Origin: Gammaproteobacteria bacterium
GTDB lineage: Bacteria; Pseudomonadota; Gammaproteobacteria; Eutrophobiales; Eutrophobiaceae
Direction of reading: 5' to 3'
Length of the DNA: 64,000 nucleotides
NCBI GenBank assembly: GCA_965208655.1
Contig: CBDBPJ010000003.1
Span: forward strand, 551,790-615,789
Made by a program: the position numbers and the translations under genes. How positions within the stretch are numbered: the stretch's first letter is position 1; each line of letters opens with the position of its first letter. The notes under the pieces are model-generated. The model saw only the letters and a program-made list of their open reading frames with translations. It was not told the origin of the DNA and made no database searches. Shown piece after piece: positions 5,006 to 46,397 of the stretch.

Positions 5006-5030
5006 GATTACCCCCTCGGGCACGGCGCAT

Positions 5031-9653: not shown

Positions 9654-9699
9654 CCTGTCTCAGGTTACTGCCCGGCGGTATTCAATACGCTTGTAGCAG

Positions 9700-17452: not shown

Positions 17453-17456
17453 GGCA

Positions 17457-27148: not shown

Positions 27149-27625
27149 ATGTCGACAAACCAGCTGAGCAGCGCCAGGATGGAAGCGATAATGCGTGAAT
27201 ATTACGACGGTTGCAACGAGGCTGACCGGGAAAAGATAACGGGGTGTTTCACGCCCGATGCGGTGCATTATTTCCCACCGGGCATGTACGAAGGACCGTT
27301 CCGCGGCGCCGCGAAGATTGCCGAACGCTGGTGCACAGCCGTGGAAAAGAGCGGTTCGTACTGGACCATTGACGCCTTGTTAATCGATGCGGACAAGGCC
27401 GAGGCGGTGATCGAGTGGAGCCATTTCAAAACAGGACAGGGGACCGTCTTGCGTGGCGCCGAATGGGTTGTGTTTGACAGGGTATCAGGATTGATGCAGG
27501 AGATCCGGGCCTATTATGCGTCGCCGCAGGCAGCGGACCTGAAGCGCCTGGAACTGGGCGGCTTCGATTACGAGGGGCGCGGTTACGAGATGGTTTCTCC
27601 CAGGGGTCGCTCAGCCGGCCAGTAG
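27149..27625 (+). CDS. SnoaL/NTF2-like small protein
   Basis: 158 aa; pattern typical of SnoaL-like polyketide-cyclase-fold proteins. Confidence 0.45.
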   Translation: MSTNQLSSARMEAIMREYYDGCNEADREKITGCFTPDAVHYFPPGMYEGPFRGAAKIAERWCTAVEKSGSYWTIDALLIDADKAEAVIEWSHFKTGQGTVLRGAEWVVFDRVSGLMQEIRAYYASPQAADLKRLELGGFDYEGRGYEMVSPRGRSAGQ

Positions 27626-28648
27626 CCCTGCCAGTTGCCGGTGGCTGCCGATAATGCGGTAGGCCCCGGCGCCGCATAAACTGGCTGAGGTGCCGGCGCC
27701 CGTGAGCACTCCTATCGGCACGACACCCGCAGCGTGGCTCGCCTGCATATCGATCATACTGTCGCCCACGTAAACCGTATCGGCCGGATCGGCATCCATA
27801 CGCCCCAGGCATTTCAGCAGGCCTTCCGGATCGGGCTTGCGTTGCTCGACGTCGGCGCCGGTAACCACTGCGTCGAATAACCCGGCTACGCCCTGTTCAT
27901 ACAGTAAATCCAGTGATCTTTCTCCGGAACCCGTAACAATGCCGAGCCGGTATCCAGCGCTTTTTAATCCGGATAATGTCCCGGACACGCCGGGGAATGC
28001 GAGCGCATGGGCCTTGAATACATCAGGCCAGAGTTGCATGGCCCTGTCGTTCAGTTTATGGACCATGGCCGGGCGGTTCTCAACGGAGGCAGGTACTACC
28101 TGATCCCAGTAGGAGATGCCGTTATTCAGCGTCTCATACATGACCGCTTTGGATACTTCCAGGCCGAATTCAGCTCCGGTCGTTTTGGCAAGCAGGTAAA
28201 ACGCGCCGACCGTGTCCACCAGCGTCCCGTCCAGGTCGAACAAAATGTTGCTTGTCCTGACGGGTTCGATGACATCCAGGCGCAGGCGGTCGCCGTCGTC
28301 CAGGGATAAGTGCCGGCGCAGTGAGACCGAGGTAATAACTTCCACCTGGTCTTCCGGGTAATCGTTGATTTGCGGAAAGATAATCGCCCCGGTCACACGC
28401 CTGTTGATATGCACCGGATAACTCCGCGCATGACAGTTATTCCCGTCAGGGCTGTTTATGCCGATACCGTGCCTGTCCCTGAGCGATTGCCAGTTCGAGA
28501 GGGTCCGCTTATCATCGATTTTTATGTTGAGGGTACCGGGCCACGCATCAATACCCAGTTTCTCCAGGAATTGCTGTTTTGCGTGTGTAAGTTCGGTAAA
28601 ACCCGCGGCTTGTCCTGTCCCGGTTACTACCCGGCCGGATAATTCCAA
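27611..28648 (-). CDS. Fusion protein: N-terminal CTP-dependent (archaeal-type, DUF120) riboflavin-kinase domain + C-terminal HAD-superfamily phosphatase domain
   Basis: N-terminal GRVVTGTGQAAGF...GTLNIKIDDK...GAIIFPQ...DGD aligns by eye with MJ0056 RibK; C-terminal FDLDGTLVDT (HAD motif I) and VGDSMIDMQAS; start placed at TTG one nt after the upstream stop, with AAGGAG upstream; the track ORF runs to 28750 but overlaps the upstream gene. Confidence 0.6.
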   Translation of the reverse strand: MELSGRVVTGTGQAAGFTELTHAKQQFLEKLGIDAWPGTLNIKIDDKRTLSNWQSLRDRHGIGINSPDGNNCHARSYPVHINRRVTGAIIFPQINDYPEDQVEVITSVSLRRHLSLDDGDRLRLDVIEPVRTSNILFDLDGTLVDTVGAFYLLAKTTGAEFGLEVSKAVMYETLNNGISYWDQVVPASVENRPAMVHKLNDRAMQLWPDVFKAHALAFPGVSGTLSGLKSAGYRLGIVTGSGERSLDLLYEQGVAGLFDAVVTGADVEQRKPDPEGLLKCLGRMDADPADTVYVGDSMIDMQASHAAGVVPIGVLTGAGTSASLCGAGAYRIIGSHRQLAGLLAG

Positions 28649-28649
28649 G

Positions 28650-29114
28650 TCAATACGTCTCCTTTTGTATTTCGGCGGCGCGATGAATCGCGGCGCGGAT
28701 GCGCTGGTACGTCCCGCAACGGCAGATATTGCCTGACATGGCCTCGTCAATATCAGTGTCGGATGGCGCGGGATTGTCAGTCAGCAGGGCGGCGGCAGAC
28801 ATCAGTTGTCCCGACTGGCAATAGCCGCACTGGGGCACCTGCAATTCCAGCCAGGCCTGCTGCACGGGGTGATAACCGTCCTTGGCCAGGTGTTCGATAG
28901 TGGTAATATTTTTGTTGCCTATACTGCTCGCGGGGAGCACGCAGGAGCGCATGGGTTTTCCGTCAACGTGAACGGTACAGGCGCCGCACTGGGCTATTCC
29001 GCAACCGAACTTGGTGCCGGTCAGGCCGATCTCGTCCCGCAGCACCCACAGCAGCGGCGTGTCCGCTTCGACGTCAACTTCAATTTGCCGGTCATTAACG
29101 TTGAGTTTAATCAT
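28650..29114 (-). CDS. [2Fe-2S]-binding small subunit of the xanthine-dehydrogenase/aldehyde-oxidase family (IorA/CoxS-like)
   Basis: [12 protein letters not shown] and CGYCQSGQ ... CRCGTY cysteine clusters; 154 aa; no molybdopterin subunit adjacent. Confidence 0.85.
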
Positions 29115-29207: not shown

Positions 29208-30839
29208 TTATTCCGGATCAACACATGCAAAGTTCTCATGCGCATCGATACTGCCGGTCCCGCGGTACCTGGAAACCCGGGGCCAGGCGCATAACGGCCG
29301 TGTCCTGGTCACTTTGCCCTGTTCTACCCGGTGGCCGGTAAGGTCCCGCGGTATGACATCGCCTTCCACCCAGTTGATCAGCGGCGTCATCAAATCGAAC
29401 CGGTCCACGTTCACCCCGCCGTTGCAGTGGTGCATGCCGGGGACCAGGTAAAGTTGCAGAAACCCGGAAATTTCATCGCCCAGCAGTGCGGCTACTTCAT
29501 GGTAATACTCGACGGTGCGCAGGGGGTTGATGCCGAAATCAGCCCAGCCGTGGTAGATGATCATTTTTCCGCCACGCCGCTGGAAGGGCCTGAGATCGGG
29601 GTCTGTTGCATTGAAAATCAGCCCTGATTGCAGCGTGCGCGGGTAGTCCCGTTCCGGATCCAGTTCCCGCCAGTCCCGGTTGGCGTCATCCGTTTCGAAA
29701 GCGAGGTACTGGAACCAGGACTTGACGATAAACGACTGCCCCAGTCCGCCTTTACTGTCGGGGACTGCGCGCCCGTCCCACGCCGATTGCGGCGCAACGG
29801 GCGTATAGGTGCCGTCGGCATAGGCGAGCCCCGGAAACTCGCCGCCGATGACGGTGCGGGGATAGATTGCCGTCTTGCCGATAAAGGTGGGCCCGTAGAT
29901 GACTGCCAGGGTGTTGATTTCAGCATCCGTGAAACCCTGCTGCGTTCCCTGCATACGGGGCAAATCCCGTTGCGGGTCGAAATCCACGGCAGGCGGGTTC
30001 CCGATAACGCCGTCTCTTACCCCGTCAGCTTCATCGTAGCGTTTGAGGATAATATCCCCCAGCAGTTCAAGCTTTTCCCGGGACAGGGGAGCGTCGGCAA
30101 CCGCCTGCTGGATATTCCGGTATTGCCAGATCATCTCCCTGAGGCTGAACACAGGCGCGCCGGCAAGGATACCGTCGAAATCGGCCGGGAAACGTTGCGC
30201 CTCGTTAAACCCCTGCAAACCGCCGGTCGAGCAGCCGTCAAAATAAGAATACCCCGGCGCCTTCCCGTAGTATGCCGCGGCAAGGTTTTTAGCCGTCAGC
30301 GCAGTCAAATGCACCGCACGGAACCCGAAATCGATCTCTTTCTGCAGGTTATTGTGCGCCCAGGTACCGCCTCGCTCCGTGGCCGCGTCGTGGCCGGTGT
30401 TGGTAAACGCCGCGGCAAATCCATGCCGCGCCGCCTTCAGCCGCGCCATGTGGCCGGCCTCATCATCCAGCGCTTCCCCTGCATAACCCCCGTTGCCGTG
30501 CATGTACAGACGTCCGTTCCAACGGGTGGGCAGGTAGACGATGTAGCGGACTTCGGGGCTGATCACCCCCCGCACCACGCACAGATCCGGCATGCCGGCT
30601 GCTGCCGTTGCCAGGGTGGCGGATAATACGCTGTTGTCCGCGTCGGAAACATGGATGAGGTCTGCGCAGCCTATACGGGGTTGCGTTACTTCGGGTGCGG
30701 TGTAATCGATACGGGATTGTTCCGCATCAAGAAAGCTTGAACCGTTCGCGGTCGGGGTCGCCGGCGCACCAGGCGTGAAAAAAACCACTGCAAGCGCCGC
30801 CGCGACGGACCGGATGGTAAGCTTGCAGGGAAATCTCAT
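29208..30839 (-). CDS. Secreted tannase/feruloyl-esterase-family hydrolase (paralog 1)
   Basis: Start placed at internal ATG MRFPCKL with signal peptide; GCSTGG catalytic-serine motif; C-terminal Cys-rich lid region. Confidence 0.8.
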   Translation of the reverse strand: MRFPCKLTIRSVAAALAVVFFTPGAPATPTANGSSFLDAEQSRIDYTAPEVTQPRIGCADLIHVSDADNSVLSATLATAAAGMPDLCVVRGVISPEVRYIVYLPTRWNGRLYMHGNGGYAGEALDDEAGHMARLKAARHGFAAAFTNTGHDAATERGGTWAHNNLQKEIDFGFRAVHLTALTAKNLAAAYYGKAPGYSYFDGCSTGGLQGFNEAQRFPADFDGILAGAPVFSLREMIWQYRNIQQAVADAPLSREKLELLGDIILKRYDEADGVRDGVIGNPPAVDFDPQRDLPRMQGTQQGFTDAEINTLAVIYGPTFIGKTAIYPRTVIGGEFPGLAYADGTYTPVAPQSAWDGRAVPDSKGGLGQSFIVKSWFQYLAFETDDANRDWRELDPERDYPRTLQSGLIFNATDPDLRPFQRRGGKMIIYHGWADFGINPLRTVEYYHEVAALLGDEISGFLQLYLVPGMHHCNGGVNVDRFDLMTPLINWVEGDVIPRDLTGHRVEQGKVTRTRPLCAWPRVSRYRGTGSIDAHENFACVDPE

Positions 30840-31047
30840 GGCTAATATCTTAAGCTTTGGGATTCCCGCTTTCAACTCTGCCCGGTACGGCCGCAACGCT
30901 TCCGGCAGGGCGCCAGGTTTATTTGATATGTAAAAAACAGGTATTATGGCCAAATCAACGTATGCCGGAAACGGGATCAGCATTCAGTTCTGTTCCACCG
31001 GAACCTTTCCGGAATACTGTGCAGTTTAATACAAACCAGGGTATCTC

Positions 31048-33129
31048 ATGTCGAGTGAAGGAATAAGAATCGGTATTGACACCGGGGGCACTTTTACCGA
31101 TTTTGCCTTGTCAAGGGACGCTGTTTTCCACACCACCAAGATACTGACCACCCACCAGGCGCCGGAACTGGCGATCATGCAGGGACTGGATGACCTGATG
31201 AAGGCTACAGGTTGCCGCCCTGGCGATGCGGAATTGATCATCCATGGCACCACGCTGGCCACCAATGCCGTCATCGAGCACAAGGGCGCCAGGGTGGCCA
31301 TGCTTACAACGGAGGGGTTCCGGGACGTTCTGGAACTGGGTTCGGAAAGCCGGTTTGATCAATATGATCTCGGCCTGACCAAGCCCGCCCCCCTGGTGCC
31401 GAGGCAACTGCGGTTTACCATTTCCGAACGCCTGGCGGCAGACGGCAGCGAATTGCTGCCGCTTGACCTTGCAGCCATCGAACAGGTTGCCGAAGAGTTA
31501 AAAAGACACGAAATAGACAGTGTCGCGGTTTGCTTCTTGCACAGCTTTATCAACCCCGAACATGAAGAACGGGCCGCGCAGGCGTTGCGCAAACACTTGC
31601 CGGGTATCTATCTCAGCCTGTCATCCCGGGTGGCGCCGGAGATCAGGGAGTACGAACGCTTCTCCACGACGGTCGCCAATGCCTATATCCAGCCGTTGAT
31701 AGATTCCTACCTCAAGCGCCTGCAGGAGGGCTTGAAACAGGCAGGATTTGGTTGTCCGCTTTACATGTTCGTATCCAACGGCGGACTGGTTGAAGTGGAC
31801 GTGGCCAGGCAGTTCCCGATCCGGCTGGTTGAATCCGGGCCGGCCGGCGGCGCCGTCTTTGCGAGCCATGTCGCCCGTATCCACCAGGAGGATCGCATAT
31901 TGTCGTTCGATATGGGCGGCACTACTGCGAAAATCTGCCTGGTCGACAATGCGGAACCGCAGAAGGCGACCCTGTTCGAGATGGCGCGGGCGCATCGCTT
32001 TAAACAGGGCAGCGGCCTGCCGGCCAGGATACCGGTGATCGAGATGGTCGAGATCGGCGCCGGTGGCGGGTCCATTGCCCGGGTCGACAGTCTTGGCCGT
32101 ATAACAACAGGTCCCGACAGCGCCGGTTCTGAACCGGGACCGGCCTGTTATGACCTTGATGGCGATGAGGCAACGGTAACCGATGCCGATCTCATCCTGG
32201 GGCGGCTGGAGGCGGAGGGATTCGCCGACGGTTCCATGCGACTCAACAGCGAGGCTGCCAGGCAGGCAGTCCGGGAGAAGCTTGCCGGGCCGCTGCACAT
32301 GGATATTCCGCTGGCCGCCTACGGTGTGGCTGAGATCGTGGAAGAAGATATGGCCAACGCAGCGCGTGAGCATGCAACGGAAAGCGGAAAATCGCTGACC
32401 GGGCGAACCCTGGTTGCCTTCGGCGGCGCGGCGCCGTTACACGCGCTTTCCCTTGCAGGCAAGCTCGGGATCAAGCGGGTAATCGTTCCGGCCCATGCAG
32501 GAGTGGGTTCGGCGATAGGGTTCTTACTGGCGCCCGTTGCTTATGAACTTGCCCGCAGTTGTCACGTCAGGCTGACTGATTTCAAGCCTGGAGTATTGAA
32601 CAAGCTGTTTAAGGAAATGAGTGAATACGCACACGGAATAGTCGCATCAGGCGCTCCCGGGCGGGGACGTACGGAAATCCGGCAGGCACAAATGCGCTAT
32701 ATCGGGCAGGGCTATAGTATTCCTGTCGATGTGCCGGTCGGGAAGTTGCTCAAAACTGACACACAGTCACTGCAAACGGCTTTCGACAAGGCCTATATCA
32801 ACCTCTACAGCAAGCTGCATGACGGGGTTGACGTGGAAATTGTCGGTGTCAGTGTTTCCGTTTCCGCCCATCTTGTTTTCGCAGAGCCTGCAGAAACTGC
32901 CGTGACTGCCGCCGGCATTCCGCCTGAAATCGATCATGGCGCCACCATGTTCGATGCACAGGCCGGCGCTTACGCGGACGTAAACGTGTATTCACGTCAT
33001 GCCCTGCAACCGGGGAATTACATACCGGGGCCAACCCTGGTGCGCGACAAGGGCACAACTGTCATGGTGCCGCAGGGTCACGGTGTCACGGTGGCCGGGG
33101 ACGATAGTTTGATCATCGAAAGGGAATAA
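31048..33129 (+). CDS. Hydantoinase A/oxoprolinase-family subunit (HyuA-like)
   Basis: IGIDTGGTFTDF N-terminal signature; 693 aa. Confidence 0.9.
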   Translation: MSSEGIRIGIDTGGTFTDFALSRDAVFHTTKILTTHQAPELAIMQGLDDLMKATGCRPGDAELIIHGTTLATNAVIEHKGARVAMLTTEGFRDVLELGSESRFDQYDLGLTKPAPLVPRQLRFTISERLAADGSELLPLDLAAIEQVAEELKRHEIDSVAVCFLHSFINPEHEERAAQALRKHLPGIYLSLSSRVAPEIREYERFSTTVANAYIQPLIDSYLKRLQEGLKQAGFGCPLYMFVSNGGLVEVDVARQFPIRLVESGPAGGAVFASHVARIHQEDRILSFDMGGTTAKICLVDNAEPQKATLFEMARAHRFKQGSGLPARIPVIEMVEIGAGGGSIARVDSLGRITTGPDSAGSEPGPACYDLDGDEATVTDADLILGRLEAEGFADGSMRLNSEAARQAVREKLAGPLHMDIPLAAYGVAEIVEEDMANAAREHATESGKSLTGRTLVAFGGAAPLHALSLAGKLGIKRVIVPAHAGVGSAIGFLLAPVAYELARSCHVRLTDFKPGVLNKLFKEMSEYAHGIVASGAPGRGRTEIRQAQMRYIGQGYSIPVDVPVGKLLKTDTQSLQTAFDKAYINLYSKLHDGVDVEIVGVSVSVSAHLVFAEPAETAVTAAGIPPEIDHGATMFDAQAGAYADVNVYSRHALQPGNYIPGPTLVRDKGTTVMVPQGHGVTVAGDDSLIIERE

Positions 33130-33137
33130 CCGTCATT

Positions 33138-34796
33138 ATGATTAATAATAACTTTAAGTTATCATTGCAACATATTGAATTTCAAGTGATATGGCGTCGC
33201 TTAATCTCTATTGTGGAAGACCAGGCCAGGACCTTGATGAAGACCGCGTTCAGCCCCGTGGTACGGGAATCCGGCGACCTGTCCGCAGCCGTGTTCGACC
33301 CGCAGGGGCGCATGCTGGCCCAGGCCATTACCGGCACACCCGGGCACGTCAATTCAACCGCTGCCGCGGTACCGCATTTCCTCAGGGAATACCCGCCGGC
33401 GGAACTAAAACCCGGCGATCACCTGATTACCAATGACCCGTGGATTGCGTCGGGGCACCTGCACGACGTCACGGTCGTGTCCCCGGTATTTCTTGCAGAC
33501 AGGTTAATCGCGCTGTTTGCCTGCACCTGCCACCAACTGGATATCGGTGGCTTGGGGCAGGGGCCTGACGGCAAGTCGGTATATGAAGAGGGACTGTATA
33601 TTCCCGTTATGAAACTGGTTGACCGGGGTGAGGTAAACCAGGATTTACTCAGGATAATTGAGGGTAACGTACGCACACCCTACGAAGTGCGGGGCGATAT
33701 CCTGTCCTATGTTGCTGCAAACGAGACCAGCGGCGTGAAACTGCTGGATATGATGCGGGAATACGGACTGGATAATCTCGATTATACCGGGAACGAGATT
33801 ATCGAACGCTCGCGCCAGGGGATGCTGGAAGAAATCCGCAAGCTGCCGGCAGGGACTACCCACAACAGCATCACCCTGGACGGGTATGACAAGCCGGTTG
33901 AAATTGTCTGTGCGCTGACCGTTGCTGATGACGAGATAAGGATCGACTTTACCGGCAGCACCGAGGCAAGCACCAAGGGTATCAACCTGGTCCTGAATTA
34001 CACCCAGGCCTATGCCAACTACGGTATACGCTGTGTGGTGGGCGCCCACATCCCCAACAATACCGGCTCGTTATCGCCGATAAAAATAAGCGCACCGGAG
34101 GGTTCTATCCTGAATGTCCAGCGACCCTGGCCGGTCTGTGCCAGGCATATTATCGGGCAATTCCTGCCGGACGCGGTAATGGGTTGCCTGGCGCAACTAC
34201 TTCCAGAGAAAGTCCCGGCGGAAGGCGCGTCATCCCTGTGGGGCGTTCAAATCCGCGGCGGGCCGGAGGTGGACGCCTCGTGCAATTATGACAACTCGAA
34301 TGCGGACGGGAGGCGTTACGAAATGCTGATTTTTAACAGTGGCGGAACCGGCGCCAGGCCCGACCAGGACGGCATGTCGGCCACGGGGTTTCCCAGCGGG
34401 GTGCGCGCCATGCCTGTTGAGGTTGTGGAAAACATGGGTCCCGTGGTGATCTGGCGCAAGGAACTGCTGGCCGATTCCTGCGGCGCCGGCGAATGGCGCG
34501 GCGGCCTGGGACAGGTCGTGGAAGTGGGGACCATCGATGAGAGTCCGTTCCTGCTGTTCGCCATGTTTGACAGGACTGCGAATCCGGCCCGCGGCCGCAT
34601 GGGCGGCGAACACGGCAAGGTCGGAACAGTCCGGGTAAAGCACGGCAAAACCCTGAATCCGAAAGGCGTACAACTCATAGAACCCGGACAGCGACTGGAG
34701 CTGCTGCTCCCGGGGGGAGGCGGCTTCGGAGACAAGGGGCAGCGCAGCGCTGCACACCTGGAACAGGATAAGCTGGCCAGCCTCGTCAGCGATTAA
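33138..34796 (+). CDS. Hydantoinase B/oxoprolinase-family subunit (HyuB-like)
   Basis: ITNDPW...GHLHD and GGGGFGD motifs; 552 aa; 8-nt gap to hyuA. Confidence 0.85.
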   Translation: MINNNFKLSLQHIEFQVIWRRLISIVEDQARTLMKTAFSPVVRESGDLSAAVFDPQGRMLAQAITGTPGHVNSTAAAVPHFLREYPPAELKPGDHLITNDPWIASGHLHDVTVVSPVFLADRLIALFACTCHQLDIGGLGQGPDGKSVYEEGLYIPVMKLVDRGEVNQDLLRIIEGNVRTPYEVRGDILSYVAANETSGVKLLDMMREYGLDNLDYTGNEIIERSRQGMLEEIRKLPAGTTHNSITLDGYDKPVEIVCALTVADDEIRIDFTGSTEASTKGINLVLNYTQAYANYGIRCVVGAHIPNNTGSLSPIKISAPEGSILNVQRPWPVCARHIIGQFLPDAVMGCLAQLLPEKVPAEGASSLWGVQIRGGPEVDASCNYDNSNADGRRYEMLIFNSGGTGARPDQDGMSATGFPSGVRAMPVEVVENMGPVVIWRKELLADSCGAGEWRGGLGQVVEVGTIDESPFLLFAMFDRTANPARGRMGGEHGKVGTVRVKHGKTLNPKGVQLIEPGQRLELLLPGGGGFGDKGQRSAAHLEQDKLASLVSD

Positions 34797-34803
34797 ATCT
34801 CGG

Positions 34804-34854
34804 ATATTTGGGGTCAGAGCAAGAGCTCTGACCCCTTGCTCTGACCCCAAATAT
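34804..34854. repeat. 51-bp palindromic MITE/REP-like element (unit GGGGTCAGAGCAAG), copy 1
   Basis: 20-bp perfect arms atatttggggtcagagcaag / cttgctctgaccccaaatat; lies between the stops of convergent hyuB genes; related 90-bp copy at 56929-57018. Confidence 0.6.
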
Positions 34855-34874
34855 TCAAATATCTTTCATCAACG

Positions 34875-36548
34875 CTACTCCTCGGGTATCTCGACGCCGT
34901 AATCCTGTTTTGCCCCCGTTGACGTGATAAAGCCTCTTCGATAGTCTTCGCGGACTTTTTCACCGGGGCGTTTTCCGGGGTCGCCGAAGCCCCCGCCGCC
35001 GGCTTCCCGGATGGTAAGAAGGCCCCCTGCAGGTAACGTATGCGTGCCTTTGCCCGGGACGGGTTCGTTATTGATCCTGAAGGCGCGCAATCCGCCGTCC
35101 CTGCCGCCCGCATAGCCTTTGGCGGGGTATTCCGTGCGTATTCCAAACAGGGCAAGCGATATTTGATGGCCCGTGTTGTTTTTCAGCACGACCTGTTGCC
35201 CCGGACCCCCGCGGTATTGGCCTGCCCCGCCTGAATCGGGGAGTATGCGCCGCTCCAGCACGGCAATTTCCGTTTCGTCTTCCCAGATTTCGCTGGATAT
35301 CATTGCGCAGTTTGTCGGCGCGGGCGTGGTTTGCCGGCCGTCCAGTCCGGTCATGGCGCCGATCCCGCCGGTGGCGAAATACTGGTCGAGCAGCCTGTCT
35401 CCATTCCGCAGCGTGCCGTTGAACACGACCGCCGTCGCCATCCCCGGTTCGGCCTGGACGGCTTCAGGCAGTGCCCTGGCAAAGGCGCCCATCAGCAGCG
35501 GCACGACATACCAGCCTACCGTATTGCGTCCCAGGGTGGCTGCCGGGTGTTGAGCATTCAGGATACAGCCTTCCGGGGCCGTCACGTCCAGGGGCAAGAC
35601 GTTGGCAAGGTTGTTTGGCAGGTCCGGTGTTGTCAGGCATTTCAGGGTGTATGCGCACCAGGAACGGGTATAGCAGAGCGGGACGTTTATTGCGTAGGGC
35701 ACGCAGGGACTGGTGCCGGCAAAATCGATTTTCACGCGGCCGCTTTTTATCTCCAGGGTGCAGGCCAGGGTAACGGGTTGTTCGCCCTGTGTTTCAGCTT
35801 CCAGTTGATTGTTGTAGACACCATCCGGCATGGCGAGGATCTTTTCCCTGACAGCCGTATCCGACTGCCTGATGATGCCGTCGGCAATAGCCTGTAAATC
35901 TTCCCGTTCATACTGGTCCAGCATCTCGTTCAGTTTTACGCCGCCGGCATAAGTACCTGAAATATTGGCCATAATGTCTCCGGCCACCTGCTCCGGCGCG
36001 CGCACGTTGCCTTTTATGATATCCAGCAATTCTTCATTCAACTGCCCTTGCCGGTAGATCTTCAGTGGTGGGATTAGCAAGCCCTCTTCGTAAATATCCC
36101 TGCTCGATATGGATGCGCCCCTGCCGCCGGTATCGACGAGGTGGCTAATGGTCATGACGAAACCAATAAGATCGCCATTGCGGAATACGGGCCTCAATAC
36201 GCTGACATCCGCAATATGGCCGGTGCCTATCCACGGGTCATTGGTAATGATGACGTCACCGTCTTCCAGGCTGTGCGCGGGATAGCTTTCCAGCAGTTTT
36301 TCGATGGTATAAAAGGCGGTGCCGGTAAAAGCAGGTGTACTTTGCGAACCCTGGGCAATGGGGCGTCCCGAGCGGTCGAATATGACGGCGCCTGCGTCCC
36401 ATGCCTCCCTCACGGTCATGGAAAAAGAGGTATGGACCAGTGCCAGGAGTATTTCATCTGCAATGGAGATGAGACGGTCCCAGAGGATCCCCAGGGTGAT
36501 GATATCCAGCGAGTTATTGTTCATGGCGCTCTGAAACCGGCGAGGCAA
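34875..36548 (-). CDS. Hydantoinase B/oxoprolinase-family subunit (HyuB-like)
   Basis: ITNDPWIGTGHIAD and GGGGFGDP motifs; start may be the internal MNNNSLD at 36524. Confidence 0.85.
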   Translation of the reverse strand: MPRRFQSAMNNNSLDIITLGILWDRLISIADEILLALVHTSFSMTVREAWDAGAVIFDRSGRPIAQGSQSTPAFTGTAFYTIEKLLESYPAHSLEDGDVIITNDPWIGTGHIADVSVLRPVFRNGDLIGFVMTISHLVDTGGRGASISSRDIYEEGLLIPPLKIYRQGQLNEELLDIIKGNVRAPEQVAGDIMANISGTYAGGVKLNEMLDQYEREDLQAIADGIIRQSDTAVREKILAMPDGVYNNQLEAETQGEQPVTLACTLEIKSGRVKIDFAGTSPCVPYAINVPLCYTRSWCAYTLKCLTTPDLPNNLANVLPLDVTAPEGCILNAQHPAATLGRNTVGWYVVPLLMGAFARALPEAVQAEPGMATAVVFNGTLRNGDRLLDQYFATGGIGAMTGLDGRQTTPAPTNCAMISSEIWEDETEIAVLERRILPDSGGAGQYRGGPGQQVVLKNNTGHQISLALFGIRTEYPAKGYAGGRDGGLRAFRINNEPVPGKGTHTLPAGGLLTIREAGGGGFGDPGKRPGEKVREDYRRGFITSTGAKQDYGVEIPEE

Positions 36549-38625
36549 CGAGGTTCAGCCTGTCATCTGTTTCGACAGAGTCACCCTCATGAATGACGGC
36601 TGTGCACTCATCGTCTTCAATCAACATGGGCCCGGTAAATTTCTCTCCCTGCCGCAAGGCATAACGGTTAACTACCGGCCACTCAACAAAGCGGTCATCC
36701 TTGTGTGAATAGACGTTGCGGACACCGGTCGACGCGTCGCCGTTGCTGTGACCGGCAGATTTACAGCCGTCAACCGGCAATGTGCCGGCGACAGTGACCT
36801 CCGCCTTCCAGTTGATGATTTCCATATCCCTGTCGGGAAAACGGGTGAAGAAATGTTTTTCATAAGCATCATGAAACAGATCCGGCAGCGCGGCATAAAG
36901 GCTTTTCATGTCGGCGCCGGAGGGCAGGCTGACTTCCAGTTCAAAACCCTGTCCCAGGTAGCGCATGTCCAGTCGCCTGGCGGTTTCAGGCTTACCGGCA
37001 GCCGCTTCTTCATGGGAGATACTCCGCAGGATGCTGTTTTCCAGTTCAGTGAAGCGCTTGATGAAACCTTCCGGGGAAAGCCCGCTTAACGCGGTCCGGT
37101 ATGATTGCATGGAGGCAAATGACACAGGCGCGCTCAGCAAGCCGACCGCTGATGCCACGCCGGAGGCGAAAGGGATGATCACCTGCGCCATTCCCAGTTT
37201 CCCTGCGATTGCCATGGCATGGGCCGGCGCTGCCCCGCCGCATGCGACCAGCCGGCACTTTCGATAGTCGATGCCGCGTTCTGCCGAATAATTTTTTATT
37301 GCCGCCGATACTTTTTCGTTGACGGTCTCGTAAATACCCCAGGCAGTGCGGGGTACTGTTGCGCCGAGCCTCCCGGTCAACTTGCCGGCAATCACCTGTT
37401 CGGCAAGTCTGGATGACGATTTCAGTTCGCCGCCCGGGAATGTATCCGTGCCGTAATAGCCCAGCAACAGGTTTGCATCGGCAGGGGTGGGCTGTTCTCC
37501 TCCAAGCCCGAAACAGGCGGGTCCCGGTTTCGCCCCCATGCTCTCCGGCCCGACCTTGATGACGCCGCGCTCATCGATGGCGGCGATGCTGCCTCCACCG
37601 GCGGCAATCTCGGCCAGGTCCAGTACCGGGGTGGAGACGGGCAGGCCGCTGCCTGATTTGTTCCGGTAGACAAGGCCGACCTCCGTGTCGTAGCGTTTCT
37701 GCGCCTTGCCGCCGCTGATAATGCCCAGTTTGGCTGTCGTGCCTCCCATGTCAAGCATGAGCAGGTCGGAACCGGCAGTGGTTTTATCCAACTGGCCGCA
37801 CCTCAGGGCAGCCGCGGCCGAACCGGATGCGAGCATGCGTACCGGGTATTGACGGGCAGTGTCCATAGTCACTACGCCGCCATCTGAACCGAGCAGGTGC
37901 AGCGTACCGGCGAATCCGTTATTTTTTAACCAGGCATCAAGTTCCGACAGGTAAGTCCTGAATATGGATTGGGAATACGCGTTTACCACTGCTGTGGTCC
38001 AGCGCTCATACTCCCTGATGGCAGGAAGTACGTCAGCGGACGTTGAGACGGACATACCGGGAAATTCACGGGCTATGACTTCGCCTGCCCGGCGTTCATG
38101 GACGGGGTTGCGGTAGGAATTGATGAAACACACGGCAACGGAGGTAATCCGGTGCCTGCCGGTTAATTCCCGAACCGCTTGCAGGACCGCCTGTTCCGGC
38201 AGGTCAGTTTCTATTTCGCCCGTGCTGTTGATCCGTTCATCGATCTCCCTGCGCAGCGGCAGGGGGACCAGGGGTTCAGGGTACTCAATGCGCAGGTCGT
38301 ACAGGTCGTAGCGCTGCTCCCTGCCGATATCGAGCGCTGAAATGAAACCTTTTGTGCATAACATGCCGGTGGCGTCTCCCTTGCGCTCCAGCACGGCATT
38401 GGCAACCATCGTCGTTGCATGGGTAATACGGGATACGGCGGCCAGTTGCACACCGGCTTTTGACAGCAGGACCCCCAGGCCCTCACGGACCGCCTGCAGG
38501 GGATCGTCCGGGGTGCTCAGCTGTTTATGCACATACAGGTGCTTGAATTCCCGGTTGGTTAAGGAGAAATCGGTGAACGTACCGCCGATATCAATACCGA
38601 GCTGAAACTGTCCGGTCTGGTTCAT
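36514..38625 (-). CDS. Hydantoinase A/oxoprolinase-family subunit (HyuA-like)
   Basis: LGIDIGGTFTDF signature; 703 aa. Confidence 0.9.
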   Translation of the reverse strand: MNQTGQFQLGIDIGGTFTDFSLTNREFKHLYVHKQLSTPDDPLQAVREGLGVLLSKAGVQLAAVSRITHATTMVANAVLERKGDATGMLCTKGFISALDIGREQRYDLYDLRIEYPEPLVPLPLRREIDERINSTGEIETDLPEQAVLQAVRELTGRHRITSVAVCFINSYRNPVHERRAGEVIAREFPGMSVSTSADVLPAIREYERWTTAVVNAYSQSIFRTYLSELDAWLKNNGFAGTLHLLGSDGGVVTMDTARQYPVRMLASGSAAAALRCGQLDKTTAGSDLLMLDMGGTTAKLGIISGGKAQKRYDTEVGLVYRNKSGSGLPVSTPVLDLAEIAAGGGSIAAIDERGVIKVGPESMGAKPGPACFGLGGEQPTPADANLLLGYYGTDTFPGGELKSSSRLAEQVIAGKLTGRLGATVPRTAWGIYETVNEKVSAAIKNYSAERGIDYRKCRLVACGGAAPAHAMAIAGKLGMAQVIIPFASGVASAVGLLSAPVSFASMQSYRTALSGLSPEGFIKRFTELENSILRSISHEEAAAGKPETARRLDMRYLGQGFELEVSLPSGADMKSLYAALPDLFHDAYEKHFFTRFPDRDMEIINWKAEVTVAGTLPVDGCKSAGHSNGDASTGVRNVYSHKDDRFVEWPVVNRYALRQGEKFTGPMLIEDDECTAVIHEGDSVETDDRLNLVASPVSERHEQ

Positions 38626-38727
38626 CGGGTAATAATGTCAGTCGCAGTATTTGTTTATCACTGAAGGGATTATACGGAATCCGGACCTGGGATTCCCGGC
38701 ATCCAGTATTTCACGGGGCTGTTATTA

Positions 38728-38757
38728 TGTATACTGTACACAGATAATCCTTAGCCG
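38728..38757 (+). promoter_or_regulatory. Candidate extended -10 promoter (TGTATACT) for the TPP-enzyme gene
   Basis: tatgtatactgtacac about 30 nt upstream of the ATG at 38765; the same 11-mer tgtatactgta recurs at 43447-43457 upstream of the TRAP SBP gene. Confidence 0.3.
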
Positions 38758-38764
38758 GCATGTT

Positions 38765-40444
38765 ATGAAGACAGGCGCACAAATTCTCGCAGATATCCTG
38801 GTAAATAATGGAACCCGCTTCGTGTTTCACATGCCCGGGGAAAGTTTTCTCAGCGCAATCGACGCCTTGAGCGGGTACCGGGATAAGGTAACGGCGATCA
38901 GTTGCCGCAATGAAACGGGAATGGCCGTGATGGCGGAGGCGACCGGCAAGTTGACCGGCAAGCCGGGGGTCTGTTTTGTAACACGGAGTCCCGGCGCGAC
39001 CAATGCGTGCCTGGGTGTCCATACCGCGTTCCAGGATTCCTCACCGATGATCCTGATCGTCGGCCAGGCGGGGCAGTTTGAAACCGAACGCGACGCATTT
39101 TTACAATACCAGGATTTCCCGAACATGTTTGCGCCCATGTCCAAGTGGGTGGCGCAGGTCGATAGCGCGCACCGGTTGCCGGAAATTGTCAGCCGGGCTT
39201 TTCATACTGCGCTGTCCGGCAGGCCAGGGCCTGTCGTCCTGGTAATCCCGGAAAATGTACTTAACGAAGAGTGCCAGCCGCAGAACGTGGCTCCGGTACA
39301 GGCAATTCAGCCTTCTCCTTCACGGGAACAGGTCGACGCGCTGTTCAGGCTGTTGGGCGAGGCAAAAAAACCGGTGTTACTGGTCGGTGGCGCCGGATGG
39401 GATGAAACCGCAAGGGAGCAGGTACAGGACTTTGCTGATAAGAATAAACTGCCCGTAGTTGCTTCTTTCAGGCGCAGGGATATTATTGACCAGCGCCATC
39501 CGTGCTACGCGGGCGAACTGGGTATTGCCTGCAATCCAAAAATTATCCCGTGGCTGCAGGAAAGTGACCTGGTCATTGCTTTTGGCCTGCGTCTGGGGGA
39601 GATGAATACCATCGGTTCCGGGTTCATGGTCGGGTTTACCCTGTTCGACGTGCCCGCGCCCAGACAGACCCTGGTACAGATTCACAGCGGTATTGAAGAA
39701 CTGCAGCGGGTATACCAGGCTGATTTGGCAATTCTTGCATCTCCGGGCCCGATGGCCTCAGCCCTGAACGGCATGGAGGCCGTTGCCGGCGTCCCGTGGG
39801 AACAATGGACCCGAAACGCCCGGGCCGAATATGAAACATTCACCGCCACCGACAATTGTCCCGGGCCGGTCGACCTGGCCGGCATCTTTCGCTGGCTGCG
39901 GGAACGCTTGCCCGCAGATGCCATCCTGACCAACGGGGCCGGCACCTATGCAGGCTGGAGCCAGCGTTACTTCCAGCATTACCGGCCGCATACACAGCTT
40001 GGCCCGATCAGCGGCGGCATGGGCTACGGCCTGCCTGCCGCCATTGCCGCGAAACTGCACCGTCCTGAAGCGACCGTTGTTGCCCTGGGTGGCGACGGCT
40101 GTTTCCTCATGAACAGCGAGGAACTGGCGACCGCGGTGAAATACCATATAGCCGTTATCGTGCTGGTCATCAATAACGATATGTATGGCGCCATACGCCT
40201 GCACCAGGAGACGGCATTCGGCGGGCGGGACCTGGGGACCTCCCTGGCCAACCCGGATTTTGCCGCCCTGGCCAGGGCGTATGGTATCTTCGGCGCGACC
40301 GTGAACAGAACCGACGAGTTCGAACCGGCCTTTGAACAGGCGCTGGAGTCCGGCGGACCTGCCTTGATCGAATTGAAAATCAACCCCGAAGCGATTAATA
40401 CGCGCTTTACCCTGAGTTCCATCTCCGGCAAAGATCATAACTGA
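38765..40444 (+). CDS. Thiamine-pyrophosphate-dependent enzyme (acetolactate-synthase-large-subunit/benzoylformate-decarboxylase-like)
   Basis: Start placed at internal ATG MKTGAQIL; GDGCFLMNSEELATAV TPP-binding motif; three-domain layout. Confidence 0.8.
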   Translation: MKTGAQILADILVNNGTRFVFHMPGESFLSAIDALSGYRDKVTAISCRNETGMAVMAEATGKLTGKPGVCFVTRSPGATNACLGVHTAFQDSSPMILIVGQAGQFETERDAFLQYQDFPNMFAPMSKWVAQVDSAHRLPEIVSRAFHTALSGRPGPVVLVIPENVLNEECQPQNVAPVQAIQPSPSREQVDALFRLLGEAKKPVLLVGGAGWDETAREQVQDFADKNKLPVVASFRRRDIIDQRHPCYAGELGIACNPKIIPWLQESDLVIAFGLRLGEMNTIGSGFMVGFTLFDVPAPRQTLVQIHSGIEELQRVYQADLAILASPGPMASALNGMEAVAGVPWEQWTRNARAEYETFTATDNCPGPVDLAGIFRWLRERLPADAILTNGAGTYAGWSQRYFQHYRPHTQLGPISGGMGYGLPAAIAAKLHRPEATVVALGGDGCFLMNSEELATAVKYHIAVIVLVINNDMYGAIRLHQETAFGGRDLGTSLANPDFAALARAYGIFGATVNRTDEFEPAFEQALESGGPALIELKINPEAINTRFTLSSISGKDHN

Positions 40445-41744: not shown

Positions 41745-41765
41745 GCCCTGATCGGTATCAGGGGA
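41745..41765. terminator. Short GC hairpin (ccctgat-cggt-atcaggg) between convergent genes
   Basis: 7-bp stem overlapping the tannase-2 stop codon; no T-tract. Confidence 0.25.
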
Positions 41766-43383
41766 CAGCGCAGGTATAGCTATCCATTTTTGCGGTATCC
41801 CCGCGTCCGCGGTATACGGCAATTTCAGGGTACGGGCAAAGCGGGTGTTCCCGTCCCGTTTCAGCGTCTTCAAGCTCGATTGCCCTAATCTGTTCCGGCG
41901 CAGTGCCGCCTTCCACCCAGTTGATCAGGGCGGTCATCCCGTCAAAGCGGTCGGCGCCCAATCCGCCCCAGCAGTGGAAACCGCCGGGCACCATGAACAG
42001 CCGAAAAAAAGAAGCGGTGTCTTCACCCATACCGGCAACGACCTGCTCATAGTAATCCACGCTGATTTGAGGGTTGACCCCCGCGTCCGCCCAACCGTGA
42101 TACAACAGCAGCTTTGCGCCGCGCGCGCGGAAGCTGCTGAAGTCCGTGGAGTTGGCATCCATGATGTCAGACATGGCTTCAAGGCGCGGCAAGGTTTCCT
42201 TTACGTCCAGTTCGCGCCAGTCGATGGTTTCATCGTCTTTTTCAAAGGCAAGATATTTCAGCCAGGAATCGACGATGGCGATTTGCTCACTGAACCCCCG
42301 TTCGTCGGGAAATACCCGGCGCCACCAGGGGGACCGGTCCGGCACCGGCTCAAACGTGGCAAATTTATAATGACGGCCGCTTGGCTCCGAACCTACCGGT
42401 ATCCCCGGCGCAACCTGCACGCCGTCAACGACCAGGCCGTTATATATCCTTGCCAGGGCTTCGATTTCCGTAGCGGTGAAACCGGTTTTGCCCGAGGCAT
42501 CAAGGGGCAGGTCCCGGGCCGGGTCAAAATCAATCGCCAGCGGGTTTTCAATGACACCGTCCGCCACCTTGTCCAGTTCGTCATATTTGGCCATGATGAC
42601 TTTCCCCAGCAACTCGACGCGATCCGCATCGAACCGGCCCTGCAGTTGCGCCATCTGGTTATTCCAGGCGTACAGCACGCTCCTGACGAAATCAAATACC
42701 GGAGAGCCAACCAGGATACCGTCGTAATCGGCCGGATAGCGCAGCGCCGCCTTGATGCCCTGGCCGCCGGCGGTGGAGCAGCCATCGTAGTATGAATAAC
42801 TGACCGGCTTGCCGTAATACATCGCCGCCAGCCGTTTGCTGACGACGGTAGTCAGGTGCAGGGCGCGGAAGCTGTAATCGACCTCCTTGTGAATGGCGTT
42901 GTGTGCCCAGGTGCCGCCCGGTTCGGTATCCTGGTCGTGGCCGAGATTGCTGAAGGCGGTAGCGAACCCGTTGCGCAAGGCGCGCCGGCGATCGTCCAAC
43001 CCGTAGTTGCCGTATACCGAATGACCTCCGTAGCCGCCGTTGCCATGGACATACAGACGCCGGTTCCAGTCAGCCGGCAGGTTGGTGCGGTATTGAATTT
43101 CCGGGGCGATGACCCCTGTCACTTCGCATGATTCAGGTGCGGCTTCAGTTGCAGGAACAAGCCTGGCGCTGATGACGCTGTGGTCGAAATCGGTCACGGA
43201 CATCAGTTCCCTGCAGGCCATGGCGGGAGTGACGTCGCGCTGGCGGTAGTCGATCCCTGAAAGCTCCGCGTCCATGAAACTCCAACTGTTGGTTTCCGCT
43301 ACGCTGTGCAAATGGCCGAGTGACAGGATTGTGAAAACCATCCATTGCGTTAATCGGGTGGTTTGAAATGCCGGCAGGTTCAT
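41758..43383 (-). CDS. Secreted tannase/feruloyl-esterase-family hydrolase (paralog 2)
   Basis: Signal peptide; GCSTAGG motif; strong similarity to paralogs 1, 3 and 4. Confidence 0.8.
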   Translation of the reverse strand: MNLPAFQTTRLTQWMVFTILSLGHLHSVAETNSWSFMDAELSGIDYRQRDVTPAMACRELMSVTDFDHSVISARLVPATEAAPESCEVTGVIAPEIQYRTNLPADWNRRLYVHGNGGYGGHSVYGNYGLDDRRRALRNGFATAFSNLGHDQDTEPGGTWAHNAIHKEVDYSFRALHLTTVVSKRLAAMYYGKPVSYSYYDGCSTAGGQGIKAALRYPADYDGILVGSPVFDFVRSVLYAWNNQMAQLQGRFDADRVELLGKVIMAKYDELDKVADGVIENPLAIDFDPARDLPLDASGKTGFTATEIEALARIYNGLVVDGVQVAPGIPVGSEPSGRHYKFATFEPVPDRSPWWRRVFPDERGFSEQIAIVDSWLKYLAFEKDDETIDWRELDVKETLPRLEAMSDIMDANSTDFSSFRARGAKLLLYHGWADAGVNPQISVDYYEQVVAGMGEDTASFFRLFMVPGGFHCWGGLGADRFDGMTALINWVEGGTAPEQIRAIELEDAETGREHPLCPYPEIAVYRGRGDTAKMDSYTCAVP

Positions 43384-44564: not shown

Positions 44565-45614
44565 CGGTAACTATTAAGTCGAGGTCGATTATGTACATTG
44601 GTATTCGTATTTGCGGGTTGCTGGCGGCTCTTATCCTGGGCAGTTTAAATGGCGCGAATGCAGGTGACTGGCCCGTGCACAGCGGTGACAAGAAAGGCAC
44701 GCGTTATTCCCTGTTGGAACAGATCACCCCCGATAACGTGGATAAACTGGAAGTTGCCTGGCGTTACCGCACCGGAGAGAAAGAGCGGCGCGGAGAAAAA
44801 GCATTTGAACAGAGTAAGGATCAAAGCATTCCCCTGCTGGTTGCCGGTAATTTAATCATCTGCACCCCGTTTAACCGCATTATCGCCCTGGACCCGGCCA
44901 ACGGAAATGAACGCTGGGTATTCGACCCCGAGATTCCCCTGGACCTGGTGGAGCCCACTACCTACGGTTGCCGTGGCGTGGCTTACTGGCGAGATGAAAG
45001 CAGCACTGATGCAGAGCCGTGCCATGAACGCCTGCTGTTCGGCACCAATGATCTGCGCATGTTCGCAATCGACGCGAAGACAGGAAAACGCTGTACGGAA
45101 TTCGGTGATGGCGGCGTCGTGGACCTGCCGCCGAGCAAACCCGAACTGTACCGTGGTGAAGTCCAGTACGCGTTTCCTCCCATCGTGGTTAACGGTATTG
45201 TCGTACTGGGCTCGACGATCGGCGATAACCAGCGTATCGATACACCCAGCGGCAAGGTACAGGCCCTGTCGGCAAAAAACGGGGAAAAGCTGTGGGAGTT
45301 CGAACCGATCCCCAGGTCGGCAGCGGACCCGGCCTTTGCTACCTGGGGTAATAACAGCGCCCTGGTAAACGGCAGCGCCAACGTCTGGTCCAACATGGCC
45401 GCGGATGAGGGGCGGGACATGGTGTTCCTGCCGGTCTCCACGCCCGCGCCGGATAATTACGGCGGTACGCGGCCGGGCAATAACGAATACGCAAATTCAC
45501 TGGTGGCATTGAGAGGCAGCACCGGTGTCAACAGGAAATTAAAATGTCCACTTTTCAGGATTCTAAAATGTCCCCTGGTGGATAAAGAAATGGCTGTGTC
45601 AATCATCTTGTGAA

Positions 45615-46397
45615 TCAGTCCGTATCTGGCAACTGTTCCGGTTTCATTACCGGCGCCCGCCCCAATAACCCCGCCTTGCGCTTCTCCTTCAACCGGTAAC
45701 TCTCACCCTTGATATTCAGGGTGGTGGCATGGTGCAGCAAACGGTCCAGGATCGCCGTGGCCAGCACCTGGTCACCGAAGATCTCGCCCCAGTCGATGAA
45801 GCTCTTGTTGGAGGTGAGGATGAGGCTGGCCTTCTCATAGCGGCGTTGGATGAGCCGGAACAACAAACTGGCATCCTCCCGGGACAGGGGCAGGTAGCCC
45901 ATTTCGTCGAGTATAAGGACTTTGGGGTAGACCCATTGCTGCAGTTGTTTCTCCAGGCGGTTCTCATCCCGGGCCCGTTTCAGTTTGCTGAGCAGGTTGT
46001 CCAGGGTCAGGAACAGGACCCGGTGCCCGGCTTCCACGGCTTTCACGCCCAGGGCGACGGCCAGGTGCGTCTTGCCCACTCCCGGCGGTCCCAGCAGGAT
46101 GACGTTCTCGCCCCGTTCCACAAACGCCAGGCCCGCCAGGGTCTTGACCAGTTTGCGGTCCAGGCTCGGCTGGAACGTGAAGTCGAACTGTGCCAGGGTC
46201 TTCACCCAGGGCAGGCGCGCCTGCCGCAGTCGGCTGTCCACCCCGTTAACGTGGCGTCCCTGCCATTCGACCCGTAAGGCCTCGGTTAAAAAGGCCGGAT
46301 AATCCCATTCCTGTTTGGCGGCCTGTTCACACACCGTCTCCAGTTGTGCCGGCAGGTGCTGGAACTTCAGCTTCGTCATTAATTGTGTCAGTTCCAT
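45615..46397 (-). CDS. istB: IS21 IstB helper ATPase (AAA+)
   Basis: GPPGVGKTHLA Walker A; start MELTQLM overlaps the istA stop. Confidence 0.9.
   Translation of the reverse strand: MELTQLMTKLKFQHLPAQLETVCEQAAKQEWDYPAFLTEALRVEWQGRHVNGVDSRLRQARLPWVKTLAQFDFTFQPSLDRKLVKTLAGLAFVERGENVILLGPPGVGKTHLAVALGVKAVEAGHRVLFLTLDNLLSKLKRARDENRLEKQLQQWVYPKVLILDEMGYLPLSREDASLLFRLIQRRYEKASLILTSNKSFIDWGEIFGDQVLATAILDRLLHHATTLNIKGESYRLKEKRKAGLLGRAPVMKPEQLPDTD

Follow-up and report, generated by a model that had tools for sequence, protein, structure and literature searches.

Two convergent hyuA-hyuB gene pairs meeting at a REP-like palindrome, and a third hyu locus encoding a HyuB-type subunit with a degenerate metal site, in a marine gammaproteobacterial genome

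Results

Two hyu pairs converge in a conserved gene order

The stretch of DNA analysed here (the window) comprises 64,000 nucleotides of contig CBDBPJ010000003.1 from a Gammaproteobacteria bacterium, in which two hyuA-hyuB gene pairs of the hydantoinase/oxoprolinase family meet tail to tail at a palindromic repeat. On the + strand, hyuA1 (31048–33129; 693 aa) is separated by 8 nt from hyuB1 (33138–34796; 552 aa), while the − strand carries hyuA2 (36514–38625; 703 aa) and hyuB2 (34875–36524; 549 aa). Both HyuA products have the Pfam domains of an ATP-binding (ASKHA) alpha subunit (Hydant_A_N, Hydantoinase_A and Hydant_A_C), full length in HyuA1. The HyuB products correspond to metal-site beta subunits; HyuB1 aligned with Hydantoinase_B over residues 12–532 (profile positions 2–518 of 519) and HyuB2 over the full length. 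In line with the original prediction, which had placed open reading frames (ORFs) at 31048–33129 (+), 33138–34796 (+), 34875–36548 (−) and 36514–38625 (−), all four were recovered with full-length Pfam matches, and the facing stop codons of hyuB1 and hyuB2 were indeed 78 bp apart (34797–34874). Mechanically, the hyuB2 ORF reaches a TTG at 36548; its most likely start is the ATG at 36524 (MNNNSLD), from which hyuB2 overlaps the hyuA2 stop codon.

The mirror arrangement was present in four other assemblies, designated here by L numbers like the other related loci: the 4.5-Mb chromosome OZ242265.1 of a metagenome-assembled genome (MAG; L014, 96% nucleotide identity over 8 kb), GCA_965243115.1 (L015), a 239-kb ENA contig (L006) and an 8-kb TARA scaffold (L017). 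The shared order was a tannase-family gene, hyuA1-hyuB1 converging on hyuB2-hyuA2, a gene for a thiamine diphosphate (TPP) enzyme, two small ORFs, a further tannase-family gene and DctP. In two more distant JGI contigs the two hyu pairs were still convergent, with five genes between them; there, B1 was 81–82% identical to the window copy, and B2 was 75% identical in the one contig in which it was identified. Pair 1 also occurred with other neighbours, and with no pair 2 nearby, in L001, L003 and L005. L001 shares the left flank of the window at 81–86% identity and the regions at 49.6–51.9 kb and 57.0–60.3 kb at 90–97%, and lacks 34.85–49.6 kb and 51.9–57.0 kb, a block containing pair 2, the TPP enzyme, tannase and DctP genes, a pyrroloquinoline quinone (PQQ) dehydrogenase fragment and an IS21 element. 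Since 90–97% is much above the identity of the left flank, recombination or transfer in the shared regions is suggested. Judged from these comparisons, the linkage of the two pairs is clade-level synteny within a plastic catabolic region and not an obligatory four-gene unit.

The junction palindrome belongs to a repeat family

The junction between the pairs contains an imperfect palindrome (34804–34854, no strand assigned) of the form ATATTT-(GGGGTCAGAGCAA)x1 ... (TTGCTCTGACCCC)x2-AAATAT, which begins 7 nt past the hyuB1 stop and finishes 20 nt before that of hyuB2. The claim of a perfect 51-bp palindrome filling the gap was not borne out: the arms are perfect over 20 bp (ATATTTGGGGTCAGAGCAAG / CTTGCTCTGACCCCAAATAT; 23 of 25 positions when taken as 25-nt arms) around a non-symmetric 11-nt centre, and the element occupies 51 bp of the 78-bp gap. 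One arm consists of one 13-bp unit and the other of two, which explains the asymmetry. Folded as RNA, the element gave −38.3 kcal/mol (z −7.7) on the + strand and −42.8 kcal/mol (z −6.8) on the − strand, and none of 200 shuffled sequences folded as well. The stem is G+C-rich and has 22 pairs on the + strand; on the − strand, 22 pairs form part of a longer helix. The stem is followed by AAAUAUUCAAAUAUC and AAAUAUCCGAGAUUU, respectively, that is, on both strands by AAAUAU and not by a run of U, and has AUAUUU upstream. A promoter/terminator scan, which gave fewer hits than shuffled sequences, did not call the element. A search of Rfam returned no family at its gathering score anywhere in the window, and only sub-threshold matches to generic miRNA hairpins at the palindrome.

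Nor is the palindrome particular to this junction: it belongs to a repeat family, with further copies at 56929–57018 and at loci of related MAGs. Against an expectation of 1.3, the window contains the 11-mer GGGGTCAGAGC seven times, in every case within one of two clusters (34810–34848 and 56932–57015). Copies of the family consist of inverted arms made up of 13-bp units (GGGGTCAGAGCAA) and capped by ATATTT and AAATAT. In the junction copy there are 1+2 units. The second copy (56929–57018, no strand assigned) has 2+2, with 29-nt perfect arms and a 32-nt spacer; it folds with −70.4 kcal/mol (z −12.4) and is flanked by the divergent starts of a tannase gene (55223–56878, −) and an ABC ATPase gene (from 57047, +). 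When the 24-nt dimer of units was searched as an exact sequence in 185,579 species genomes, it was found in five contigs of the MAG APA_bin_93, at the same two sites in OZ242265.1 as in the window, and in one unrelated soil Acidobacteria contig. Unit number at the 56929–57018 locus varied between strains (4+2 in L013, 2+2 in the window and L010). All repeat sites examined were intergenic, between convergent genes in L009, in L011 and at 34.8 kb of the window, co-directional genes in L012 and divergent genes at 56.9 kb. The junction copy itself is identical in sequence in L014 and in L007, a contig that ends within it. General scans of the window ORFs turned up no gene for a REP-associated tyrosine transposase (RAYT; REP, repetitive extragenic palindrome), although no search was aimed at it.

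Two further observations concern inverted repeats in the window. Between them, the two copies of the family enclose a variable block (34.8–57.0 kb), and the exact 24-mer dimer occurs at no other site in the 4.5-Mb OZ242265.1 chromosome. Another large inverted repeat, the third of the intergenic ones and unrelated in sequence, lies at 3484–3586 between genes 2526–3449 and 3620–5125; its 26-nt arms are 96% complementary and flank a 51-nt spacer.

Such an element might serve as a selected, dedicated bidirectional terminator for the two convergent operons. Very stable hairpins can form on both strands, at distances of 7 nt (hyuB1) and 20 nt (hyuB2) from the stop codons, and two of three further family sites in APA_bin_93 are at convergent gene ends. 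Moreover, the junctions of L006 and L015 also have strong, though unrelated, palindromes (GGGGACGGAATT-type; z −3.6 to −10.3), L015 with an additional 22-bp perfect inverted repeat. However, a U-tract after the stem is absent on both strands; the terminator scan did not call the element; the same element is found in the divergent promoter region at 56929–57018; unit copy number differs between strains; and L017 keeps the arrangement with an 18-bp gap devoid of structure (z about 0). We thus regard a dedicated terminator as possible but doubtful. Because the family occurs elsewhere too, the U-tract is absent, and the junctions of relatives have unrelated hairpins or none, the simplest reading of these sequences is that a REP-like repeat was inserted into a permissive 3'-3' junction, and that it does not represent a conserved dedicated terminator. 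REPs in general can act as barriers to exonucleases or to read-through. By analogy, the junction hairpin would probably have a secondary effect of this kind.

At two other hyuB ends, half-element-like sequences form the last codons followed by the stop: ATATTTCGGGGTCAGAG-TAA at 11645–11671 of L001, in hyuB1, and ATATCTGGGATCAGAG-TAA at 9690–9710 of L015, in hyuB2. If these half-copies are remnants of the element, insertion would have remodelled the 3' ends of both genes.

The encoded enzymes resemble ring-opening hydrolases

The products of the window were compared with characterised enzymes by pairwise identities and family scores, using those PDB sequences that could be recovered. Membership of the hydantoinase/oxoprolinase family was clear for all complete hyu genes, including those of a third locus described below (hyuA3, hyuB' and hyuB3): A1, A2 and A3 matched PF05378, PF01968 and PF19278 above the Pfam gathering scores, and B1, B2, B3 and B' matched Hydantoinase_B (PF02538) over about 519 of 519 profile positions (E 1e-110 to 1e-144). 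The three ATP motifs defined for the alpha subunit (DxGGTxTD, DxGGT and GxxPGP; PMC8453981) are present in each of the three HyuA proteins, as DTGGTFTD (11), DMGGT (288) and GSEPGP (360) in A1 and as DIGGTFTD (12), DMGGT (292) and GAKPGP (364) in A2. Similarly, B1, B2 and B3 retain the Asp-His-Asp-His metal site of the beta subunit, which in the caprolactamase subunit CapB comprises D41, H99, D102 and H124 and is backed by mutations (PMC8453981).

The best solved relatives were hydrolases, namely N-methylhydantoinase (7hk5), which was the top PDB match for A1, B1 and B2, and caprolactamase (6yra); both outscored the carboxylases 5l9w, 5svb and 5m45. Identities were low, with 27–31% between B1 or B2 and the two hydrolases and 34% between B3 and CapB. 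Scores for the caprolactamase equivalogs NF050156/NF050157, whose cut-off is 1000 bits, were 489 (A1), 451 (A2), 698 (A3), 188 (B1), 217 (B2), 377 (B3) and 240 (B'), and the acetophenone carboxylase equivalogs NF042975/NF042960/NF042976 (cut-offs 1250–1500 bits) were likewise not reached, with best scores of 81–388 bits. Because no copy reaches an NCBIfam equivalog cut-off, hydrolase chemistry and substrates can only be inferred. On the basis of these similarities, we infer that the two products of each pair assemble into an (alpha-beta)2 ATP-dependent hydrolase of cyclic amides, and that the substrates differ between the pairs.

The genes next to each pair offer some hints at substrates. Divergent from hyuA1 lies a gene of the tannase/feruloyl-esterase family (29208–30839, −; Pfam Tannase), for which the sequence suggests a start at ATG 30839 and a signal peptide. 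Divergent from hyuA2 is the gene for a TPP enzyme of the NCBIfam PRK08199 subfamily (38766–40444, +; Pfam TPP_enzyme_N/M/C; NF006052, 758 bits against a cut-off of 539), with a probable start at ATG 38766. A search for an operator shared by the two promoter regions (30840–31047 and 38626–38765) gave nothing convincing. Pair 1 consistently adjoins the tannase-family esterase, conserved as its neighbour in L001, L006 and L015, and a 154-aa 2Fe-2S subunit of xanthine-dehydrogenase type; elsewhere, in other genomes, it is found near genes for a UbiD-type decarboxylase, an SNF transporter and a flavin adenine dinucleotide (FAD)-dependent amine oxidase and near Fer4 genes. Pair 2 consistently adjoins the PRK08199 TPP enzyme, which also accompanies the hyuA2B2 orthologues of L006, L015 and L017. 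In L016 (62% identity), genes for a molybdenum (Mo)-hydroxylase large subunit, hyuA, hyuB and the TPP enzyme are co-directional; pair 2 and the TPP enzyme gene form one operon there, and the last two genes overlap. It is plausible, if speculative, that the pairs open lactam rings made by hydroxylation of N-heterocycles; PMC8453981 cites a step that would be an analogue of such a role, that of IaaCE in indoleacetate degradation.

Beside the 2Fe-2S subunit gene, we noted an unusual gene (27611–28750, −) in which a CTP-dependent riboflavin kinase domain of archaeal type is fused to a HAD phosphatase; its place beside the subunit gene is kept in L001, L006 and L015.

Sponge microbiome studies usually read hyuA and hyuB as the N-methylhydantoinase of creatinine degradation (PMC6742649), and one or both pairs might accordingly act on host-derived creatinine, as is commonly assumed for sponge symbionts. 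Besides the rank of 7hk5 among the PDB matches, a Creatinase_N/Peptidase_M24 gene and an M20 peptidase gene between the pairs in two distant contigs would fit this assignment. Against it, identity to 7hk5 is only 28–31%; creatinine deaminase, N-carbamoylsarcosine amidase and sarcosine oxidase were not recognised beside either pair in the window; and the conserved partners (the tannase-family esterase, the 2Fe-2S subunit, the TPP enzyme and, in L016, the Mo-hydroxylase) are outside that pathway. NCBIfam scans of the neighbours for enzymes of the creatinine and hydantoin pathways yielded none; two Amidohydro_1 genes, an aminotransferase gene and others stayed below equivalog cut-offs. A creatinine-degrading N-methylhydantoinase is therefore an improbable identity for either pair.

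Still less probable is a single multi-subunit enzyme encoded by all four genes, or an ATP-dependent carboxylase of the acetone/acetophenone type, in place of two separate hydrolases. Acetophenone carboxylase does combine a single HyuB-like subunit with two of HyuA type (PMC8453981), linkage of the pairs was seen in six of the nine genomic contexts examined, and weak, sub-threshold NCBIfam matches to acetophenone carboxylase (Apc) subunits were obtained. Yet the scores for Apc and for acetone carboxylase (Acx) were far under the cut-offs and under the hydrolase scores, and pair 1 is found without pair 2 nearby in L001, L003 and L005. Carboxylase chemistry is unlikely for the hyu pairs because the HyuB proteins have about 550 aa, against 684–776 aa in the carboxylase subunits, and there is no room for small extra subunits: a gamma/epsilon subunit gene is absent, and each pair directly adjoins the other pair and its own divergent neighbour. 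Two separate hydrolases thus remain the preferred reading of the four genes.

The two pairs are intact, ancient paralogues

Identity was 37% between A1 and A2 and 34% between B1 and B2, somewhat lower than the approximately 40% previously estimated by eye. Comparison of pair 1 with pair 2 by blastn returned short patches only, with a best match of 62 nt at 74% (E 6.5e-06). GC content and GC at third codon positions (GC3) were uniform across all hyu genes and their neighbours. Orthologues of B1 were found in marine MAGs at 76–91% identity, and its relatives in Alphaproteobacteria, Anaerolineae and other MAGs at 57–65%; orthologues of B2 exist at 75–95%. Since B1 shares 57–65% identity with relatives from Alphaproteobacteria and Anaerolineae but only 34% with B2, the divergence of the pairs is, on these identities, far older than the clade of this genome. 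The pairs are thus ancient paralogues and do not represent even an old local duplication, which agrees with the earlier view of old paralogy as opposed to a recent inverted duplication.

All four genes of the mirror pairs are intact, full-length and under purifying selection. The ratio of nonsynonymous to synonymous substitutions (dN/dS), calculated against orthologues in three other assemblies, was 0.08–0.14 for pair 1 (A1, 0.14, with L006, L015 and L001) and 0.19–0.30 for pair 2 (B2, 0.19; A2, 0.23–0.30). Because the catalytic motifs are intact and these values are low (0.08–0.30), pseudogenes are excluded. None of the circumstances named beforehand as undermining the arrangement (near-identical copies, an assembly artefact or pseudogenes) was found. 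In particular, the symmetric gene order with a palindrome at its axis, and the MAG contig L007 that terminates inside that palindrome, could have pointed to a recent inverted duplication or to a chimeric fold-back in assembly, but this was refuted by the low identities, with flanks that are unlike on the two sides, and by independent assembly of the arrangement in four other datasets, including the 4.5-Mb chromosome, a 3.9-Mb contig and the TARA scaffold.

A third hyu locus contains a degenerate HyuB-type subunit

The third hyu locus (13921–19520, −) consists of hyuA3 (17457–19520), hyuB' (15683–17452) and hyuB3 (13921–15717), all assigned by Pfam. B3 keeps the Asp-His-Asp-His (DHDH) tetrad, whereas B' has Q-R-E-H in its place and has therefore lost three of the four metal ligands. 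This is a trait of its family: the tetrad was degenerate in all but one of about 60 representatives of the B' family at 34% identity or more, with substitutes that vary (among them ERDR, QRNQ and RTHH), and more distant matches had DHDH or DQDH. The order A-B'-B is kept in three metagenome loci (L018, L021 and L022); in L019 and L020, A-B' stands at a contig end. Across these five loci, identity to the window copy was 68–88% for A and 44–72% for B', and for B it was 69–89% (L018, L021 and L022). By this measure, B' diverges faster than A and B.

These features make B' look like a conserved non-catalytic beta-type subunit. A literature search found no description of a HyuA-HyuB'-HyuB system. 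A3-B'-B3 could constitute an undescribed three-subunit variant of the ATP-dependent lactamases/hydantoinases, in which B' would have a scaffold or regulatory role beside a canonical HyuB; to us, the balance for and against this proposal is about even.

Number of hyu genes and the host

The earlier count of five HyuB-type and three HyuA-type genes in the window was correct. The fifth HyuB-type gene, taken before as a partial HyuB at 1–311, is of HyuB type; it is, nevertheless, the C-terminus of a fused HyuA-HyuB protein (5-oxoprolinase/N-methylhydantoinase type) at 3–311 (+), and not a separate HyuB. Its 102 codons run off the window and match Hydantoinase_B at positions 415–518 of 519; in a search of 1.84 billion representatives, the best full-length relatives had 1187–1339 aa and were matched at their extreme C-terminus.

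A hyu density of this order, noted before as unusual, is so for bacteria in general. It is less so in symbionts of the sponge Aplysina aerophoba, in which COG0145 (hyuA) and COG0146 (hyuB) have been reported in a network of symbiont-enriched genes (PMC5649159). An exact-sequence look-up of HyuB1 gave no match, which shows that the window itself is absent from the collection searched, and look-ups of P0136 and P0005 were equally empty. The genomes closest to the window are Gammaproteobacteria MAGs, with APA_bin_93 as one of the two closest. Aplysina aerophoba is the source of the APA_bin series, whose contigs are named in the same way (PMC11706023), and APA_bin_93 is therefore probably derived from this sponge. 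The density is hence a known trait; what appears new from the sequence comparisons is the spread of the copies over at least four deeply separated subfamilies, with no orthologue of a characterised enzyme among them.

Other genes in the window

Four genes of the tannase/feruloyl-esterase family, all on the − strand, were present in the 64 kb (29208–30839, 41758–43383, 53619–55220 and 55223–56878), so that this family is over-represented in the window as much as hyu. Two of the copies are in tandem, and the copy at 29208–30839 is the one with an apparent signal peptide. At 44591–47578, a PQQ-dehydrogenase gene ends at about half of the Pfam profile (340 aa, positions 1–279 of 595), directly abutted by an IS21-type element (istB, 45615–46529; istA, 46388–47578). 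The gene was probably disrupted by the insertion.

Discussion

Taken together, the results make it likely that the locus consists of two independent hyuAB operons for distinct ring-opening hydrolases, placed convergently, with a REP-like hairpin inserted between them. According to this model, hyuA1-hyuB1 and hyuA2-hyuB2 would each encode a heteromeric (alpha-beta)2 ATP-dependent ring-opening hydrolase of the lactam/hydantoin type, in which HyuA would bind and hydrolyse ATP through its ASKHA motifs and HyuB would open the ring at its Asp-His-Asp-His metal site, as in the caprolactamase CapAB. As ancient paralogues, the two pairs would act on different substrates, each with its own conserved partners. 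Each operon would be transcribed from its own divergent promoter region, with transcripts that converge. In the lineage of the window, a repeat of 13-bp units in inverted arms would have been inserted into the permissive 3'-3' junction, where, on either transcript, it would provide a very stable 3' stem-loop able to block read-through and 3'-exonucleases.

Several points weigh against this explanation. None of the seven complete hyu genes reaches any NCBIfam equivalog cut-off. The linkage of the pairs across approximately 75–96% identity could reflect a shared pathway and not independence. A strong hairpin is present at the junction in four of the five genomes with abutting pairs (the window, L014, L015 and L006), and selection for a 3' structure, whatever its sequence, may lie behind this. 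Finally, the count of the exact 24-mer dimer (two in the 4.5-Mb OZ242265.1 and five APA_bin_93 contigs) is low, below that of classical REPs.

The mirror arrangement is thus real but ordinary, being made up of new members of a known enzyme family and a REP-like element. As conserved local synteny in one marine, apparently sponge-associated clade of Gammaproteobacteria, it matters little by itself. Its interest lies elsewhere. According to the literature, hyu genes are enriched in sponge symbionts, so far without explanation. Two HyuAB subfamilies, each with its own conserved partners, are defined here: pair 1 is accompanied by a tannase-family esterase and the 2Fe-2S subunit of a Mo-hydroxylase, and pair 2 by a TPP enzyme and, in L016, a Mo-hydroxylase. 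These could guide the discovery of hyu substrates. The junction, with its "empty site" in L017 and unrelated elements in sister lineages, offers a clean case of a palindromic repeat inserting at a convergent junction. Furthermore, the analysis brought to light the HyuA-HyuB'-HyuB system with its metal-site-less subunit; should its proposed three-subunit nature be true, B' would be the beta-side counterpart of the alpha/alpha' duplication in acetophenone carboxylase.

Among known systems, the repeat most resembles the REPs and bacterial interspersed mosaic elements (BIMEs) of Enterobacteria and Pseudomonas, which are likewise short imperfect palindromes, intergenic, present at more than one site, strain-variable and contig-breaking, and often situated at the 3' ends of convergent genes. 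It differs from them in its tandem 13-bp units (1–4 per arm), its AT-rich end caps and its low measured copy number.

With regard to the enzymes, acetone and acetophenone carboxylases (5svb/5m45 and 5l9w) share homologous alpha- and beta-type subunits and the ATP and metal motifs with the proteins of the window. The similarity is, however, much weaker, their HyuB-like subunits are longer (684–776 aa) and they contain extra small subunits that are absent here. N-methylhydantoinase, known as a fused enzyme (7hk5) and also as a two-subunit HyuAB, is likewise an ATP-dependent ring-opening enzyme of this family; in contrast to the split genes found here, 7hk5 is a single 1288-aa chain, with 28–31% identity to the proteins of the window, and creatinine-pathway genes are not adjacent in this locus. 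In the caprolactamase CapAB of Pseudomonas jessenii (PDB 6yra; PMC8453981), the gene order is B-A, as opposed to A-B here, B1 and B2 are only 27–30% identical to CapB, and the CapA/CapB family scores of the window proteins (188–489 for the two pairs, against 1000 bits) are low. Nonetheless, CapAB shares with the hyu pairs two separate subunits of similar sizes encoded by adjacent genes, the three HyuA ATP motifs and the Asp-His-Asp-His site of HyuB.

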